In this document: positions 37,872 to 44,729 of the stretch, piece after piece | How the letters are laid out: every line of letters starts with the position of its first letter | Position numbering within the stretch: the first letter of the stretch is position 1 | Source of the DNA: an uncultured Chloroflexia bacterium | GTDB taxonomy: Bacteria > Chloroflexota > Limnocylindria > Limnocylindrales > CSP1-4 | Direction of reading: 5' to 3' | NCBI GenBank assembly: GCA_963749705.1 | Contig: CAVVNQ010000010.1 | Span: 64,001 to 128,000 of the forward strand | Length of the DNA: 64,000 nt | Made by a program: the position numbers and the translations under genes | The notes under the pieces: model-generated | What the model was told of the DNA's origin: nothing | Database searches by the model: none | Seen by the model: only the letters and a program-made list of their open reading frames with translations

Positions 37872-39692
37872 TCAGCTCTCCGAGTACGCCTTGGGCAGTG
37901 ACTCGACCGTCGGCACCTTCGTCCGCAGGTCGCGCAGGGCGGCCTGGTCCATCGACGCGAGGCGCGGCAGGTCGGGCTGGTTCGTGCGCAGCAGCCGCTC
38001 GGTCAGCGTGGACAGCAGCAGCTTGTTCACCTCGGGCACGTCCATGACGCCGCGGAGGGCGTCGGCGGGGACCTCCATGAGCGTGCTCGGCCGTGAGGCC
38101 ACCACGTCCGCCGTCCGCGCGCTGCCGGTGAGCGCCGCGATCTCGCCGAAGAAGTCGCCCGCGCCCATCGTCGACAGCCCGCGATAGCCACCCTCGGCAT
38201 CGGGGACGCCGGCGGCGGCCTCGCCCTTGAGGATGAAGTACGCGGCGTTGGCCTGCTCGCCGTGCATGACGAGCCGGGCGCCTTCGGGGACCTCGCGAAC
38301 CACCGCATCCTTGATGAACGCCGCCCGCTGCGAGGCGTTCAACAGGCTGAACGTGGCCAGCCGGCCGACCAGGCGGTCGAAGTCGGCGAGCGTCGCCGGT
38401 CGCACGACGACGTCACCCGTCACCCGCGCCGCGCGCAGCGCCGACAGCCCGCGACGCCACTCGGCAGCCGGCCGTCCGACGCCCGGGGCGACGAGTGACG
38501 CGATGCCCACCGCGAGGGTCACCAGCGCGACGAAGCCAAGGAGCAGGCGCACGTCGAGCACGTCGGCCAGCCCGGCGCATGCCATCCCGGCCAGGAAGAT
38601 CACGTCGCGCATGACGAACAGGCCGGAGAACACGCGGCCCCGCATCTCGCGCGGCGTGTTGCGCTGGAGCAGCGTCTGGCGGGCAACGGACGTCGGTGAG
38701 TTGAAGAACCCGCTGATCATCGCGAACGCGATCGCGACCCCGATCACCGGCGAGGCGGCATAGAGCAGGCTGGCGATGCCCATGCCCGCCGATCCGACGA
38801 ACACCCACAGCCCGGTCTGGAGGCGGGCGCTGTAGCGGGCCATGAACAGGCTGCCCAGCACGAAGCCAACCGAGGTCAGGCCCTCCTGGATCCCGTACTC
38901 GAACTCGGTCGCGTGGAGCTCCCGGATGGCCATCGGCAGCAACAGGACGTTCCACAGCCCGAACACGAAGAAGATCGGCGCCCCGAGCAGGAACAGCGAG
39001 CGCAGCATGGGCGTGCGCGCAATGGTCATGATCCCGGACCTGAGGTTGGTGATCACCACGCCGACCGAGGTCTCCTCCTCGACCTCGATCCTCGATCGGA
39101 CGCGGAGCAGCCAGATGCAGCCGGCCGAGAACAGGAACGTGAGGGCGTCGATCCAGAATGCCCAGTAGATGCTGAACGCCGACGCCAGCAGACCCGCACC
39201 CGCGAACCCGATCGCGGTCGAGCCGAACGAGGCGATCGAGAGGTAGGCGTTGGCCGCGGCCAGCTCCTCGTCGCTCGCGATCTCGGGGATGATGCTCTCG
39301 TAGGCGGGGTCGAAGAACTGCTTGACGCCCGCGTTGACCAGGAGCGCGACGAACAGCAGCGAGACGTCGAGCCCGATCAGGAACGGGATCGAGGCGACGA
39401 TCACCGCCTGTCCGAGGTTGCTTGCGAGCATGATCGAGCGCCGGTCGAAGCGATCCACGAACACGCCGGCGACGAGGCCCACGATCAGGCTGGGCACGGC
39501 CGTGACCATCAGCGTGACGCCGACCAGGAAGGCGGAGCCGGTCCTGTCGTAGACGTAGATCGCGGCGGCAAGGTCGGTCAGCGACGAGCCGGCCGTGGAG
39601 ACGAGCTGCGCGAGCCACATCAGCCGGAAATCGCGCTTCCTGAACACCGCGGTCGGGGAGATCGGCTGGGTGGCCGGCGTGGCCTCGCTCAT
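37872..39692 (-). CDS. MFS transporter fused to a C-terminal cyclic nucleotide-binding domain
   Basis: GVFVDRFDRR MFS motif A, about 12 TM; GDFFGEIAAL..RTADV cNMP signature. Confidence 0.88.
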   Translation of the reverse strand: MSEATPATQPISPTAVFRKRDFRLMWLAQLVSTAGSSLTDLAAAIYVYDRTGSAFLVGVTLMVTAVPSLIVGLVAGVFVDRFDRRSIMLASNLGQAVIVASIPFLIGLDVSLLFVALLVNAGVKQFFDPAYESIIPEIASDEELAAANAYLSIASFGSTAIGFAGAGLLASAFSIYWAFWIDALTFLFSAGCIWLLRVRSRIEVEEETSVGVVITNLRSGIMTIARTPMLRSLFLLGAPIFFVFGLWNVLLLPMAIRELHATEFEYGIQEGLTSVGFVLGSLFMARYSARLQTGLWVFVGSAGMGIASLLYAASPVIGVAIAFAMISGFFNSPTSVARQTLLQRNTPREMRGRVFSGLFVMRDVIFLAGMACAGLADVLDVRLLLGFVALVTLAVGIASLVAPGVGRPAAEWRRGLSALRAARVTGDVVVRPATLADFDRLVGRLATFSLLNASQRAAFIKDAVVREVPEGARLVMHGEQANAAYFILKGEAAAGVPDAEGGYRGLSTMGAGDFFGEIAALTGSARTADVVASRPSTLMEVPADALRGVMDVPEVNKLLLSTLTERLLRTNQPDLPRLASMDQAALRDLRTKVPTVESLPKAYSES

Positions 39693-39827
39693 GACCTGTC
39701 CCCGCACGGATGCCCGGTCGTGTGCCGCATTCTCGGTCGTCCCTCTGGCCAGTGCGCCTCTCTCTGCGGCAACGGGTGACGGAGCCGGGGCGCCTGGGCT
39801 GGCGGAGAGTGTACGGTCCGCGGCCCC

Positions 39828-40421
39828 TCAGCGCTGGAGGTTCACGCCCTCGAGCGCCAGCAGCTCGCGCTTGAGCGCGAGCGCCGCCTCCACGCCACCC
39901 CAGGTCGCCGCGCCGTAGCCCCCGAGCGTGCCGTCGCCGGCGATCACGCGATGGCAGGGGATCAGCAGCCCGACCGGGTTGCGGCCAACGGCGCCCCCGA
40001 CAGCCCGTGCGGCGCCACGGCGGCCGATCCGGCGGGCCACCTCGCCGTAGCTTGCGACCTGGCCGCGCGGAATGGCTCGGACGGCCCCCAGCACGAGCCG
40101 GTCCCAATCGGAGCGGTCCGAGATGTCGATGGCCACGGCGTCCAGCGGGACCGGCTCGCCGGCCATCGCGCGACCGATCAGGTCGATCGCCGTCTCGAGA
40201 TGGGTCCTGGCCGTGCCCGCGGGCGGCGCGGCAAGCGGCTCCGCCAGGCGCAGCCGCCGCCGCTCGAGACCTGCCTCGAACTCGCCGCCGCTCGACAGCA
40301 TCGCCACGGCGACCACGCCCCGGGGGCCGGCGGCGATCCGGACCGGGCCCCACGGTCCGTCGATCACGGCGGTCGCCAGCCCGGCGTCCTCCGGCGGTCG
40401 CTGGCGATCGCGTGGCGTCAT
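39828..40421 (-). CDS. ogt: Methylated-DNA--protein-cysteine methyltransferase
   Basis: IPRGQVASYG, AARAVG, IPCHRV active site. Confidence 0.92.
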   Translation of the reverse strand: MTPRDRQRPPEDAGLATAVIDGPWGPVRIAAGPRGVVAVAMLSSGGEFEAGLERRRLRLAEPLAAPPAGTARTHLETAIDLIGRAMAGEPVPLDAVAIDISDRSDWDRLVLGAVRAIPRGQVASYGEVARRIGRRGAARAVGGAVGRNPVGLLIPCHRVIAGDGTLGGYGAATWGGVEAALALKRELLALEGVNLQR

Positions 40422-40431
40422 CCGGAAATGG

Positions 40432-40460
40432 TTGCACGTGCTGGCTGGATGGGGCACACT
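40432..40460 (+). promoter_or_regulatory. Putative sigma70-type promoter of the lysine operon leader
   Basis: TTGCAC (40432-37) - 17 nt - CACACT (40455-60), 9 nt before the leader ATG. Confidence 0.5.
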
Positions 40461-40469
40461 GCGCCGGCA

Positions 40470-40550
40470 ATGTTGCGCATCACCGTCAGCTTCGACGCCA
40501 AGAAGAAGCTCTGGCGGCCCCGCCGGAAGGCTCGGGCCCTGGGGCTCTGA
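40470..40550 (+). CDS. Putative Lys-rich leader peptide MLRITVSFDAKKKLWRPRRKARALGL
   Basis: AAG AAG AAG at 40500-40508 plus a fourth AAG, directly upstream of dapB. Confidence 0.6.
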   Translation: MLRITVSFDAKKKLWRPRRKARALGL

Positions 40551-40570
40551 CGGCGCGCGAGCGACGATCA

Positions 40571-40640
40571 TCGGGGCCTCCGGGACCGGAGGCGCCGAGG
40601 GGCCGTGACACCGCGATGGTGCCGCGGCCTTTGTGATTCT
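40571..40640 (+). terminator. Attenuator-like tandem hairpins; the second is followed by a U-rich tract
   Basis: Hairpin 40571-40598 (TCGG.GCCTCCG/CGGAGGC.CCGA) and hairpin 40601-40629 (GGCCGTGACACC/GGTGCCGCGGCC) + TTTGTGATTCT. Confidence 0.55.
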
Positions 40641-40684
40641 CGGACCTCCGGAACCCGCGCCCAAACGCGGAAGGACGTTCGAGC

Positions 40685-41431
40685 ATGCAGCTCCTCATCT
40701 TCGGCCCTGGCCGGCTGGGCGGCGCGATCGCCGGCGCGGCCACGGCCGCCGGCTGGCCGGCGCCGATCATGGTCGGCAGGTCCGGCGCCGGCCGTCTCGA
40801 GCGGCTGCCATCGGCCGATGTCGCGATCGATGCCTCCGACGGGTCGGCCGTCGCCGGCAACGTCGCCCGGGCGCTGGCGGCCGGGCACCGCTCGTTCGTG
40901 CTGGCAGCGACCGGCTGGAACGCCGATATCCCGACGGTGCGCTCGCTGCTGCTGGCAGATGGCGCCCGGGCGGTCGTCGCCCCGAACCTGTCGCTCGGCG
41001 CGGCGCTGTTCCTGCGCCTCGTCGAGGTCGCGGCCGGCTGGTATGCGTCGGCCGGGACGTTCGAGCCATCGATCGTGGAGTGGCATCGTCGGGGCAAGGC
41101 GGACCGGCCGTCCGGGACGGCGAGGGCGCTGGCCCGCCGGATCTCGGCCGCCGATCCGCGCTGGTCGATCGAGCCCGATGGCGATCACCGGCCACTCGAG
41201 GTCGTGGGGATCCGCGCGGGCGCGGCGCCCGGGACGCACCTCGTGACGTTCGATGGACCGGGCGAGGTCGTCGAGCTGCGCCTCGCGGCCCGCGACCGGT
41301 CCGCATACGCGGACGGCGCGCTCGAAGCCGCCCGCTGGCTCGTCCGCGAATCGCGGGAGCCCGGCCTTCACTCGTTCGACGACGTCGTCGATGACCTGCT
41401 CGCGGCGGCTCCCGCCGCCGTCCACGCCTGA
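40685..41431 (+). CDS. dapB: 4-hydroxy-tetrahydrodipicolinate reductase
   Basis: GPGRLG, ATGW, PNLSLG, EWHRRGKADRPSGTA, RSAYADGA. Confidence 0.85.
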   Translation: MQLLIFGPGRLGGAIAGAATAAGWPAPIMVGRSGAGRLERLPSADVAIDASDGSAVAGNVARALAAGHRSFVLAATGWNADIPTVRSLLLADGARAVVAPNLSLGAALFLRLVEVAAGWYASAGTFEPSIVEWHRRGKADRPSGTARALARRISAADPRWSIEPDGDHRPLEVVGIRAGAAPGTHLVTFDGPGEVVELRLAARDRSAYADGALEAARWLVRESREPGLHSFDDVVDDLLAAAPAAVHA

Positions 41432-41455
41432 CAGCCGACCCGAAGGAGAACCGCC

Positions 41456-42469
41456 ATGACCCGCACGACCCGACCCACCGCCCTTGCCTCGACCCACGTC
41501 CAGCCCCGCCTTCGCGGCGCGTTCACCGCGCTCGTCACGCCATACACCGCCGACGGCCGAGTCGACGAGGCTGCCTATCGCCGGCTCGTCGCATGGCAGG
41601 CCATGGCGGGCATCGACGGCCTCGTCCCGGTCGGCACGACCGGCGAGGCGCCCACGCTGTCCGCCGGCGAGCGGGAGCGCCTGATCGAGATCGCGATCAC
41701 CACGATCGCCGAACGGTCGACGCGCCGGGTCCCCGTGATCGCCGGCACCGGCACCAACGACACCCGCGCGACCATCGAGGCCACCCGCCGCGCGGCCGCC
41801 CTCGGCGCCGACGCCGCGCTGATCGTCACCCCGTACTACAACCGGCCGGACCAGCGGATGCTCGACGCCCACTTCCGCGCGGTCGCCGACGAGGGCGGGC
41901 TGCCGATCGTCGTCTACAACGTGCCGTCGAGGACGGGCTCGAACGTCACCGCCGACACGTTCCTGCGGCTCGCCGAGCACCCGCGCGTGATCGCGGTCAA
42001 GGAGGCGAGCGGCAACATCGAACAGATCGCGGTCATCTGCCGCGACCGGCCCCGGGACGTCGCCGTCCTCGCCGGCGACGACGCCGCCATGCTGGCGGTG
42101 CTGGCGATGGGCGGCGACGGCGTGGTGTCCGTGGCGAGCAACGAGATCCCGGGCGACGTGGCCGCCCTCGTCCGGTCCGCGCTCGAGGGCGACTGGGCCG
42201 GGGCGCGCGCGATCCACGACCGCTGGCTGCCGTTGTTCCGGGCCAACTTCCAGGGCGCGCCCAACCCGGTTCCCGCAAAGGCCGCGATGGTCGCGATGGG
42301 GCTGCTCGAGCGCGACGACCTGCGGGCACCCCTGCTCCCGCTCGACGACGGGCCGCGCGAGCGCCTGGTCGCGCTGCTCCGATCGCTGGGGCTCGTGGAC
42401 GGCGGTGGGCGCCAGCCGGTCGCCCGCTCGGTGGGGCGGACCACCGCCGATACGGCGGCCGTCGCGTGA
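41456..42469 (+). CDS. dapA: 4-hydroxy-tetrahydrodipicolinate synthase
   Basis: GTTGE, VTPYYNRP, YNVPSRTG, AVKEASG, NPVPAK; RBS AAGGAG. Confidence 0.93.
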   Translation: MTRTTRPTALASTHVQPRLRGAFTALVTPYTADGRVDEAAYRRLVAWQAMAGIDGLVPVGTTGEAPTLSAGERERLIEIAITTIAERSTRRVPVIAGTGTNDTRATIEATRRAAALGADAALIVTPYYNRPDQRMLDAHFRAVADEGGLPIVVYNVPSRTGSNVTADTFLRLAEHPRVIAVKEASGNIEQIAVICRDRPRDVAVLAGDDAAMLAVLAMGGDGVVSVASNEIPGDVAALVRSALEGDWAGARAIHDRWLPLFRANFQGAPNPVPAKAAMVAMGLLERDDLRAPLLPLDDGPRERLVALLRSLGLVDGGGRQPVARSVGRTTADTAAVA

Positions 42470-43290
42470 CCGCGCCGTCCGTTCGCGCGGAGACCCGGTC
42501 CTCGATCCTCGACGACCTCGATGCCGGGCATCGCCGCGCCGCCGTGCCGGACTCGTCGGCACCCGGCGGCTGGCGCACCGATCCCGAGGTCAAGGCCGCG
42601 ATCCTCACCTGCTTCCGCGACCGGCGCACGGTCACCTCGACCGCGGGTGGGGGCCTTGCCTTCCGTGATCGGGTGGGGCTCCCGTCCAAGCCGCTCATCG
42701 ATGGTCCGCTCGCGACGGCGGCGCTCGATGCGGGCCGGCCGTGGCGCATCGTGCCCGGCGGGACCAGCATCCGTGCGGGCGTCCACCTTGGGCCGGGCGT
42801 CGTGGTGATGCCGCCATCGTTCATCAACATCGGGGCCTGGATCGGGGAGGACACCATGGTCGACTCCCACGTGCTCGTCGGCTCGTGCGCCCAGGTCGGC
42901 GCCCGGGTCCACCTCGCCGCCGGCGTGTCGATCGGGGGCGTGCTCGAGCCGCCCGGGGCCCGTCCCGTGATCGTCGAGGACGATGCCTTCGTCGGTGCGG
43001 GCTGCCGGCTCCTCGACGGGGTCCTGGTCGGGCATGGCGCGGTCATCGGGGCGGGAGTCGTGCTGACCGGGACCAGCCGCGTCTACGACCTCGTTCGGGA
43101 GCGCGTGCTGACCGGCACACCCGAAGCCCCGCTGGCCATCCCGCCGGGCGCGGTGGTCGTGCCCGGGTCCCGGCGGGTCGACGGCCCGTTTGCGGGCGAG
43201 CACGGGCTGTCCATCTCGGTCGCGCTGCTGGTCAAGGACCGCGACCCGGGTACCGATGCACGGGTCGCGCTCGAGGACGTGCTCCGGTGA
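42466..43290 (+). CDS. dapD: Tetrahydrodipicolinate N-succinyltransferase
   Basis: RIVPGG, PSFINIGA, VGSCAQVG, GGVLEP hexapeptide repeats. Confidence 0.9.
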   Translation: MTAPSVRAETRSSILDDLDAGHRRAAVPDSSAPGGWRTDPEVKAAILTCFRDRRTVTSTAGGGLAFRDRVGLPSKPLIDGPLATAALDAGRPWRIVPGGTSIRAGVHLGPGVVVMPPSFINIGAWIGEDTMVDSHVLVGSCAQVGARVHLAAGVSIGGVLEPPGARPVIVEDDAFVGAGCRLLDGVLVGHGAVIGAGVVLTGTSRVYDLVRERVLTGTPEAPLAIPPGAVVVPGSRRVDGPFAGEHGLSISVALLVKDRDPGTDARVALEDVLR

Positions 43291-44729
43291 GTGCCGTCCG
43301 CCAGCCCGGGCCGGCGCCCGCCCGGAACGCTGCGCCCGTCCCGCGTCGCGGCCGGCCGCCCGCGCGCAACGAGATCCTGCGCGGCGGCCGGTTGGGCGGC
43401 CAGGATCCGGCGGCGCTCGCGGACCGGTACGGGACGCCGCTGTACGTCTATGACCTCGACGTCGTCGCACGCCAGGTGTCGGCCCTTCGATCCGTGCTGC
43501 CGGCATCGTTCGACCTCGCCTACGCGGTCAAGGCCAACCCGAACCTTTCGGTCATGCGCCACCTGGCCGGGCTGGGGCTGGGCGCCGACGTCGCGTCGGG
43601 TGGCGAGCTGGGGCATGCGCTTCGGGCGGGGTTTGTCGCGGACCGGATCGTGTTCACAGGACCGGGCAAGCGCGACGAGGAGCTGGCAGCAGCGGTCGAC
43701 GTCGGGGTTCGTGCCGTGACCGTCGAATCGCCCGGCGAGCTGCGCCGACTGGCCCGGATCGCCGAGGGGCTCGGCCGTCGCCAGCCGATCCTGCTCCGCG
43801 CCGCCGCCACGGCGTCAGCCCCGCTCGAGCGCGTGCGCCTCGTCGGCGACGACGGCGCGGGCAAGTTCGGGATGGACCTTGTGGACGTCCGGGCGAGCGC
43901 CGCGGAGGCGATCGGGTCGTCGTGGCTCGATGTGCTCGGGCTTCACGTGTTCGGCGCCTCGAACGTGCTCGACGGCGGAGCGGTCGCCAGCCATGTCGAG
44001 GCAACGGTGCGCGCCGCCCGCGAGCTGTCGGTGGCGACCGGGTTCCGTCTCCGGCTCGTCGATGCGGGCGGCGGGCTCGGCGTTCCGTACGAGCCCCACG
44101 AGGCCGGGCTCGACCTGGCTGCCGTCGGGTCTCGCCTGGCGGCGCTCGAGGCGAGCATGCTCAGGGACGATGTCACGAGGGAGGCCCGCGTCCTGCTCGA
44201 GCCGGGCCGGTACCTGGTGGCGCCCGCCGGCGCCTACGTGGCCAGGGTCGTCGACCGCAAGATGGTCGGCGGTCACCACGTGGTCATCGTCGACGGCGGG
44301 ATCCACCATGTCCTGCGCCCGGTGCTGGTGGGCCAGGAGCATCGCGTCCGCGTCCTCTCGGGCGGTGCGACGACCACGGCCGCCCCGACCGTCATGGCCT
44401 CGACGGCCTCGGCCGCGGCCGGCCAGCGCCTTCCGGTCACGATCGCGGGGCCGCTGTGCTCGGGTCTCGACGTGCTCGCACAGGATGCGCTGTTGCCGCT
44501 GCCCGATCCCGGCGACCTGGTCGCGGTGCTCGACGTCGGGGCGTACGGGGCCACGGAGTCGATGCCGTTCTTCCTGTCGCACCCGCTCCCACCCGAGATC
44601 GCGCTGCGGGGCGGCGCCGCCTGGATCGCGCGACCGCGGATCGAGCCCGAGACGTGGCTCGCGTGGCAGGGCGACGAACCCGCCGACGCTGATCGGGCCG
44701 CCGTCGGCCGCGACACCCGCCGACGCTGA
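43287..44729 (+). CDS. lysA: Diaminopimelate decarboxylase-family PLP enzyme
   Basis: GTPLYVYD, YAVKAN, DAGGGLG, LEPGRY, GPLC, GAYG, FLSHP; last gene of the dap operon. Confidence 0.75.
   Translation: MSAVRQPGPAPARNAAPVPRRGRPPARNEILRGGRLGGQDPAALADRYGTPLYVYDLDVVARQVSALRSVLPASFDLAYAVKANPNLSVMRHLAGLGLGADVASGGELGHALRAGFVADRIVFTGPGKRDEELAAAVDVGVRAVTVESPGELRRLARIAEGLGRRQPILLRAAATASAPLERVRLVGDDGAGKFGMDLVDVRASAAEAIGSSWLDVLGLHVFGASNVLDGGAVASHVEATVRAARELSVATGFRLRLVDAGGGLGVPYEPHEAGLDLAAVGSRLAALEASMLRDDVTREARVLLEPGRYLVAPAGAYVARVVDRKMVGGHHVVIVDGGIHHVLRPVLVGQEHRVRVLSGGATTTAAPTVMASTASAAAGQRLPVTIAGPLCSGLDVLAQDALLPLPDPGDLVAVLDVGAYGATESMPFFLSHPLPPEIALRGGAAWIARPRIEPETWLAWQGDEPADADRAAVGRDTRRR

Follow-up and report, generated by a model that had tools for sequence, protein, structure and literature searches.

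In the classical enterobacterial attenuators (trp, his, leu, thr, pheA and ilv), a short open reading frame (ORF) with clustered codons for the amino acid that the operon makes is combined with an intrinsic terminator and with an antiterminator that excludes it, and the position at which the ribosome stops decides between the two. We describe a candidate for a leader of this kind at 40432-40684 of a 64,000-nucleotide stretch of DNA from an uncultured Chloroflexia bacterium (GTDB lineage Chloroflexota; Limnocylindria; Limnocylindrales; CSP1-4), namely positions 64,001 to 128,000 of the forward strand of contig CAVVNQ010000010.1 in GenBank assembly GCA_963749705.1, hereafter the window. The leader lies upstream of dapB, the first of four lysine biosynthesis genes. 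At a rough probability of 85%, we take it to be a ribosome-mediated transcription attenuator with an apparently leaderless, Lys-codon leader peptide that senses charged Lys-tRNA and controls dapB-dapA-dapD-lysA. The short ORF and the terminator are shared with the classical attenuators, and the choice of the antiterminator by the ribosome is shared in our model. Unlike those systems, the dapB leader concerns lysine and has an apparently leaderless ORF, its codon conservation is restricted to two fixed registers (-12 and -6), neither sequence nor Rfam relates it to them, and it belongs to the Chloroflexota.

Leader ORFs at or near the 5' end of the transcript that carry codons for the regulated amino acid are described in mycobacteria. 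Leaderless polycysteine upstream ORFs (uORFs) act as attenuators in these bacteria (bioRxiv 10.1101/834739), and for the branched-chain amino acid uORF of Mycobacterium tuberculosis ilvB1 a ribosome footprint of ~26 nucleotides (nt) was modelled to choose between antiterminator and terminator (PMC13236596). Our model of the dapB leader shares this footprint-based choice. The mycobacterial uORFs differ from it in amino acids and phylum; moreover, the latter paper assigns the cysteine uORFs to translation attenuation (PMC13236596), whereas the dapB leader has a terminator.

Lysine riboswitches (L-box) and T-box elements likewise occur in the 5' leaders of lysine genes, where a terminator is often the means of control. 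We scanned 39500-41500 on both strands with Rfam cmscan at E≤10, and only three chance-level matches to unrelated families were obtained. The leader is thus neither a lysine riboswitch (RF00168) nor a T-box (RF00230), as the first-pass annotation of this DNA had proposed to verify. Unlike the L-box and T-box leaders, it appears from its sequence to sense by codons in frame.

In a literature search that did not cover supplementary files, we found no account of attenuation or of a leader peptide for lysine, and nothing on attenuation in this uncultured class of Chloroflexota. The nearest item is a suggested small ORF with Thr and Lys codons before the aspartate dehydrogenase gene of Sinorhizobium (PMC10117765). 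A 2005 survey of Actinobacteria reports no RNA structure upstream of lysine or methionine operons (PMC1262725). The mechanism proposed here is textbook; the element is new for diaminopimelate genes and for Chloroflexota, and it has no Rfam match. The lysine cluster of Thermus thermophilus reportedly has a leader-peptide attenuator with tandem Lys codons, described by Tsubouchi et al. in 2005 (J Biol Chem). That leader would precede genes of the alpha-aminoadipate pathway rather than the diaminopimelate pathway, and in a different phylum. Given this report, the initial statement that such an attenuator was not known to be described was probably too strong. The dapB leader would add lysine, for diaminopimelate-pathway genes, to the amino acids under leader-peptide attenuation, and would place the classical device at work in an uncultured Chloroflexota class. 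As an RNA family outside Rfam, it could serve for annotating these genomes.

Lysine codons at two fixed registers

The leader ORF (MLRITVSFDAKKKLWRPRRKARALGL; 40470-40550, plus strand) comprises 26 codons, beginning with an ATG at 40470, and a TGA at 40548-40550. Three consecutive AAG codons occupy 40500-40508 (plus strand), of which the first and the third are the conserved ones. In an alignment of 68 leaders, registers were given as nucleotides before a fixed GCGGCCC strand, counted from a conserved UGG codon. A Lys codon was found at -12 in 65 leaders and at -6 in 67. The middle codon at -9 specified Lys in 35 of the 68 and had eight meanings in all (K, S, Q, R, A, P, E and T). At least two Lys codons within the three-codon window were present in 67/68 leaders, and the exception carries an insertion and still reads K-S-K. 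Nearly all Lys codons in these leaders were AAG (166, against a single AAA). We also scanned one genome per prokaryote species with a sequence pattern, which yielded at least 119 stretches; among the matches listed, every one of the 118 analysable loci had at least two Lys codons. The conservation of the Lys run in relatives, which the first-pass annotation had named as a check of its Lys attenuator, was therefore borne out.

Lys codons make up 1.55% of the codons of the genome (7131 AAG and 99 AAA among 465,343), and KKK occurs five times in these 465,343 codons. Because both are so rare genome-wide, the AAG run is far from chance. A fourth AAG (40527-40529), which had initially been counted in the Lys cluster, lies in the loop of hairpin P1 (see below) and is GAG in most other genera. 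A regulatory role for this codon was ruled out, since it is not conserved.

The openness of the ORF is uninformative alone, because the genome has 72% G+C and the ORF forms the end of a longer open frame of 199 codons (39951-40550). What is informative is its comparison with relatives. A -35-like box TTGCAC (40432-40437, plus strand), whose TTGCA is invariant in 17 same-genus loci, is followed after a 17-nt spacer by a -10-like box CACACT (40455-40460, plus strand) that lies 9 nt 5' of the uORF ATG. The promoter-like boxes, the 26-codon ORF with its AAG run and the dapB gene behind it were all present as first annotated. The position of the -10-like box implies a transcript with a predicted 5' leader of ~0-3 nt, and no Shine-Dalgarno-like sequence was found within 40461-40469. 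Both boxes and the ATG are kept across the same-genus loci, the ATG being invariant in 17/17. In 62 of the 68 aligned loci, a TTGnnn-N16-19-nAnnnT motif ends 6-10 nt 5' of the uORF start codon. With this spacing, the ATG lies no more than a few bases from where the transcript is expected to begin, which leaves no room for a Shine-Dalgarno sequence and is the layout of a leaderless message.

The reading frame was set by the conserved UGG CGG CCC, and the 63 nt upstream were scanned for ATG codons. The frame so defined contained an ATG in 61 of 62 loci, whereas the remaining frames contained one in 11 and 7 loci. In two additional loci, GTG stands at the aligned start place. Among the matches listed in the wider scan, 116 of the 118 analysable loci start with ATG. 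The stretch between the ATG and the Lys run varies in sequence, and its length is only 30, 33 or 36 nt, that is, it changes in steps of 3 nt. The in-frame ATG, the promoter spacing and the codon-periodic conservation of Lys all fit an ORF that is read.

In one locus (L073, genome G150), a one-base deletion within GCGGCCC shifts the frame and gives an ORF of 54 codons; either the copy has decayed or the sequence is in error. In the leaders of one genus (L080-L095), several copies of a TGCATA/TATGCA-like motif are found 20-90 nt 5' of the leader promoter and also overlapping it. This arrangement looks like the operator of a DNA-binding regulator.

Leaders with other codons at the same registers were found before other genes. 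The sets located 12 and 6 nt 5' of GCGGCCC are AAG-NNN-AAG before the lysine operon, ATG-TGT-ATG before metY, and ATG-GCG-ATG or ATG-GTG-ATG before a thrC-like gene. Codons that change with the pathway of the downstream gene are expected of a codon-reading ribosome, not of a ligand-binding RNA. An alternative of the latter kind would be a structured RNA, similar to a riboswitch or T-box, that directly binds lysine, an intermediate, a protein or a tRNA, with the ORF being incidental. The very high nucleotide conservation, which continues past the stop codon, would fit such an RNA, as would the presence of two GNRA-type loops and the folding of the 231-nt leader far below shuffled sequences (z=-3.88). 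We consider it improbable nevertheless, as no Rfam model matched, those of the lysine riboswitch and T-box included, the conservation of the Lys region is codon-periodic with a free middle codon, and the ATG is in frame and at the predicted transcript start. Moreover, a scaffold with Met codons before methionine genes is unexpected for a lysine pocket.

Across genera, the peptide sequence that follows the Lys codons (WRPCREARALGL) seems to be conserved. This could point to an arrest peptide, in which the nascent ..KxK[LR]WRP.. stalls the ribosome from within the exit tunnel, the trigger being perhaps a metabolite and not a shortage of Lys-tRNA; basic +X+ motifs favour stalling in other contexts (PMC12583479). 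The codons themselves, however, behave differently. GCGGCCC stays even where the Trp codon has become one for R, G, E, L, M, T, A or P, and the position of the stop codon shifts (+27, +30, +36 or +45), so that the C-terminal end of the peptide varies in length. Compensatory base-pair changes 3' of the Lys codons alter the encoded residues, for instance C/A to Y/V or S/T, and the swap from K-x-K to M-x-M tracks the pathway of the downstream gene. These substitutions indicate that 3' of the Lys codons the RNA, rather than the peptide, is under selection, and that the apparent peptide conservation is due to RNA pairing. An arrest peptide is thus very unlikely, and we retain the ribosome-mediated attenuator as our interpretation.

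We used a covariance model of the leader core (R1) to follow the leader through related genomes. R1 gave one strong match in the own genome and matched 65 of 108 sampled genomes of the family; at the level of the order, 20 of 27 sampled genera were matched. It also matched 3 of 50 genomes from a family that belongs to a different order within the class, and none of 42 genomes (~1 Mb each) of the sister family. By BLASTP, a dapB homologue lies 3' of the leader in 59 of 70 R1 loci; the 11 misses are five Met-type leaders, the window's own locus and five failures of the ORF picker. In all three loci from the other order, dapB follows. Within the genus, DapB homologues were detected in 20 of 24 sampled genomes, and all 17 full loci have the leader. 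From the Lys codons to the CCUCC box, the mean column identity within the genus is 89%, with DapB proteins that are 67-81% identical. Among the matches listed in the wider scan, dapB was found in 97 of the 107 loci with enough flank, a partial best alignment in nine and none in one. A Chloroflexota-lineage label was attached to 76 of the 80 matches listed for taxonomy, many of them Candidatus Limnocylindria or Limnocylindrales, and other labels to four.

Predicted terminator and antiterminator and the modelled switch

Hairpin P1 (40507-40524 with 40529-40546, plus strand; GGAA loop 40525-40528) overlaps the last Lys codons with its outer stem. In the alignment it corresponds to helices 3 and 4, which are 90% and 99% paired and show compensatory changes, for example from GCC/GGC to GUC/GAC. 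The small hairpin P2 (40551-40566, plus strand; GCGA loop) is kept only within the genus. Hairpin P3 (40572-40582 with 40587-40597, plus strand; helix 7) shows 90.5% pairing, with changes on both sides in 7 of 10 pairs. It is followed by an intrinsic-terminator-like hairpin (40598-40612 with 40618-40632, plus strand) with a U-rich tail, UUUGUGAUUCU, to 40640, which was recognised by folding, by a consensus scan and by covariation (helix 8; 97.3% paired, both-side changes in 9 of 11 pairs). The consensus scan detected one terminator-like site, compared to 0.1 expected from shuffled sequences. Two hairpins had been placed at 40571-40598 and 40601-40629 from the sequence at first sight; both are present, with bounds that moved to 40572-97 and 40598-632 upon folding.

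For the complete terminator-state fold, 93.2% of the cells in the 68-leader alignment are paired and 34 of 46 pairs changed on both sides, figures that are flattered by the fact that the alignment was fitted to this structure. None of 500 shuffles reached this covariation, and slid controls were at most 52.8% paired. The hairpins thus covary in relatives, which was the second check that had been proposed for the Lys attenuator.

The strand GCGGCCCC (40514-40521, plus strand) can pair either within P1 or with the 5' arm of the terminator (40599-40606), and we refer to it as the antiterminator strand. Its 7-8 bp complement to the terminator arm is conserved, and the key helix is nearly invariant. 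Compensatory changes that keep the helix are GCGGUCC/GGACCGC (L104) and GCGACCC/GGGUCGC (L087). In the folding model, the alternative pairing of 40515-21 with 40599-605 suggested by the first-pass annotation proved to be this conserved antiterminator helix. A repeat finder recovered this pairing as well as the second one suggested there, CCGGAGG (40586-92) with CCTCCGG (40645-51). The latter forms a CCUCCGG box after the terminator (40645-40651, plus strand), which is complementary to the 3' arm of P3; many genera likewise have CCUCC 3' of their terminator. The minimum-energy fold joins UCC within the box to GGA in the Shine-Dalgarno region of dapB (40670-40676). The box is possibly an anti-Shine-Dalgarno sequence, and this predicted pairing may provide a second, translational layer of control.

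Successive 5' truncations of the leader were folded as a stand-in for masking. At equilibrium, the full-length leader formed the terminator under every 5' mask. A thermodynamic switch in the full-length RNA was therefore ruled out, as the terminator is stable in all masking states. Since the terminator always wins at equilibrium, any switch must be kinetic and act during RNA synthesis. The probability of upstream pairing of the terminator 5' arm discriminated poorly (0.67, 0.75, 0.50 and 0.46). For this reason, we replaced it with the energy cost of freeing that arm in an RNA cut before the terminator 3' arm.

Over 66 loci, the arm-freeing cost was 12.75 kcal/mol for a ribosome whose A site holds the first Lys codon. 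It was 6.9 kcal/mol with no ribosome, 5.7 kcal/mol at the last Lys codon and 5.3 kcal/mol at the stop codon. The first-Lys cost exceeded the stop-codon cost in 66/66 loci and the no-ribosome cost in 65/66. A base-by-base scan of the 5' boundary gave a sharp peak of 11.5-13.7 kcal/mol across six positions, and this 6-nt window includes the position at which the boundary would fall if the ribosome stood with its A site on the first Lys codon. At the first-Lys boundary, GCGGCCC pairs with the terminator arm in 63 of 67 minimum-energy folds, as part of one long hairpin, in which 40514-21 pair with 40599-606 and the arms of P3 pair with the remaining, 3' half of P1. In this alternative fold, 91.2% of the cells are paired, compared to 31-55% when slid.

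From these data, we infer a transcript start, translation of the ORF, termination and a response to lysine in the following way. Transcription would start at, or within ~3 nt of, the AUG at 40470, and ribosomes would translate the 26-codon ORF from a leaderless message. With lysine in good supply, the ribosome would reach the UGA at 40548, the RNA would form P1, P3 and the terminator (40598-40632 and U tail), and transcription would stop before dapB. When Lys-tRNA is scarce, the ribosome would halt with the first AAG (40500) in the A site. The halted ribosome would cover the outer stem of P1 and leave GCGGCCCC (40514-21) free. One long hairpin would then be preferred, with this strand pairing to the terminator 5' arm (40599-606) and the rest of P1 to P3. 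The terminator would be blocked, and the polymerase would read through into the operon.

A small leaderless ORF with a leaky terminator or stabilising hairpins could also be present without regulation, giving constant low expression or insulating the operon from the promoter of the divergent ogt-like gene. A terminator that is predicted in every masking state at equilibrium is what one would find in such a case. Lys codons at fixed registers would then be left unexplained, as would the fact that 40514-21 stay complementary to the terminator arm and the matching Met version before metY, and we regard an unregulated feature as extremely unlikely. Each of the three alternatives fails on codon periodicity, start-codon placement or the Lys/Met swap. 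The Lys leader-peptide attenuator, in turn, was supported by every proposed computational test that was run, all of them on sequence.

Several points weigh against a ribosome-mediated attenuator at dapB. Some of them concern the leader itself. Lys is missing at the first register in two of the 68 leaders (RKK and MKK, one each) and, among the matches listed in the wider scan, in AKK (3), SKK (2) and RKK (1) of 118 loci. Compensatory change in the key helix is limited to the two lineages mentioned above, and the conservation of the leader is tighter than simple hairpins would call for, which may be due to an extra binding partner. In addition, 43 of the 108 family genomes have no R1 match. Of five R1-negative genomes that were checked, four had no dapB match to the query used and one had a weak match; genomes without the leader may thus lack dapB of this type.

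Other points concern the switch. Besides the stability of the terminator at equilibrium, there is the dependence of the model on transcripts that were cut short and on the assumption that the ribosome extends to 13 nt past the A-site codon, an edge that resembles the ~26-nt occlusion in the M. tuberculosis ilvB1 model (PMC13236596). Covariation in the alternative fold is weak, with eight pairs changed on both sides, a number that was matched by 25 of 500 shuffles, and these pairs were counted on the very sequences that had served to derive the fold. Furthermore, a ribosome waiting at the stop codon exposes GCGGCCC behind it, which the model ignores. Because of the weak covariation and the shared origin of fold and count, we call the switch a well-fitting model and not a demonstration.

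Methionine codons on the same scaffold

The five weakest R1 matches were second copies of the leader 5' of other genes. Leaders reading ..NMCMRRR.. or ..PMCMRRR.. precede metY, which encodes O-acetylhomoserine sulfhydrylase. Two others, ..RMAMPEAP.. and ..TVMVMPWAP.. (L098 and L101, in genomes G141 and G162), precede the thrC-like gene, a member of the threonine synthase family. Each of these two leaders has a terminator and lies a few kb from the genome's own dapB leader. The thrC-like gene encodes an N-terminal Cys-rich extension. Enzymes similar to ThrC make homocysteine in some actinomycetes, and by analogy we presume that the gene at these two loci may encode a methionine-pathway enzyme.

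We searched 401 sampled genomes of the family for the motif ATG TGT ATG CGN NGG CGG C and found it in 77 of them (one flagged as unpublished), which represent 19 of 49 genera and include the genome of the window. A reversed control pattern gave one match. Downstream of the motif, metY was found in 29 of 30 loci examined. The metY leaders read ..SW.MCMRWRPRR.EDG. and then have a terminator; their Met codons occupy the -12 and -6 registers 5' of GGCGGCCC, just where the Lys leaders have their Lys codons. Three metY leaders compared to Rfam matched no family.

The arm-freeing cost was calculated for metY leaders as well. An energy peak at the first Met codon was obtained in all 22 analysable leaders of the 30; of the other eight, one held Ns and seven were failures of the terminator finder. 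The cost was 12.06 kcal/mol at the first Met codon, 5.9 kcal/mol with no ribosome, 6.19 kcal/mol at the third codon and 4.45 kcal/mol at the stop codon.

On balance, we favour the view that one attenuator scaffold has been re-programmed between amino acids via a swap of two codons at a fixed register, and that these homologous leaders form a modular family which includes a Met-sensing attenuator. No methionine-sensing leader-peptide attenuator was found in our literature search, and we know of none. If the view is true, the modular scaffold includes such a device. The two-codon register and the Lys/Met pair would amount to a natural experiment, in which the specificity of an attenuator is changeable by a few point mutations, and the scaffold would offer a compact design for synthetic amino-acid sensors.

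The Met leader of the own genome lies outside the window (contig C6:170206-170292 to ~170400; L239/L031) and consists of the uORF MSHTTVSWSMCMRGRPRRAEDGRRAIPR and a terminator 5' of a metY-like gene. This gene (C6, ~170400-171750) is in two frames, a 143-codon start piece and then a 413-codon piece, which results from either a frameshift or an assembly error. In the metY loci L225-L254, a conserved stretch (..CUCCG..ACGACGGGUAGCCGCCGA..) without an Rfam match is located ~20-40 nt 3' of the Met-leader terminator, before metY.

When the own genome was scanned for a uORF followed by a terminator and a gene, exactly the Lys and Met leaders were recovered, plus a uORF encoding MSAFYRFICPA. The latter, which contains Phe-Tyr-Arg-Phe (contig C8:47026-47061; L224:327-362), has a strong terminator at ~C8:47108-47135 and lies 5' of a gene for 3-deoxy-D-arabino-heptulosonate 7-phosphate (DAHP) synthase (NCBIfam NF006421, 465 bits). 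It is a candidate leader for aromatic amino acids.

The lysine operon and its neighbours

The window has 72% G+C. By a plot of G+C at the codon positions and by family searches, the leader was placed in a 263-nt gap between an ogt-like gene on the minus strand (39828-40421), its divergent neighbour, and the run of lysine genes on the plus strand, dapB-dapA-dapD-lysA. The first gene to be controlled, dapB (40685-41431, plus strand), encodes 4-hydroxy-tetrahydrodipicolinate reductase (Pfam DapB_C, 5.7e-25); its NCBIfam score of 91.3 bits is under the curated cut-off of 122. It starts with the ATG at 40685, with GGAAGGA upstream at 40670-40676.

The following gene, dapA (41456-42469, plus strand), matched Pfam DHDPS (1.9e-84) and NCBIfam dapA (303 bits vs a cut-off of 206). 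A dapD-like gene for tetrahydrodipicolinate N-succinyltransferase (42466-43290, plus strand) scored 245 bits with NCBIfam NF008808 (cut-off 204), and its frame was backed by the plot of third-codon-position G+C (GC3). The last gene is lysA-like and encodes a diaminopimelate decarboxylase (43287-44729, plus strand; Pfam Orn_Arg_deC_N), with a putative start codon; it scored 268.7 bits with NCBIfam lysA, under the cut-off of 297.9.

Farther upstream, the minus strand at 37872-39707 encodes a 611-residue protein in which a major facilitator superfamily (MFS) transporter (residues ~27-405) is joined to a C-terminal cyclic-nucleotide-binding/CRP-like region (~461-588).

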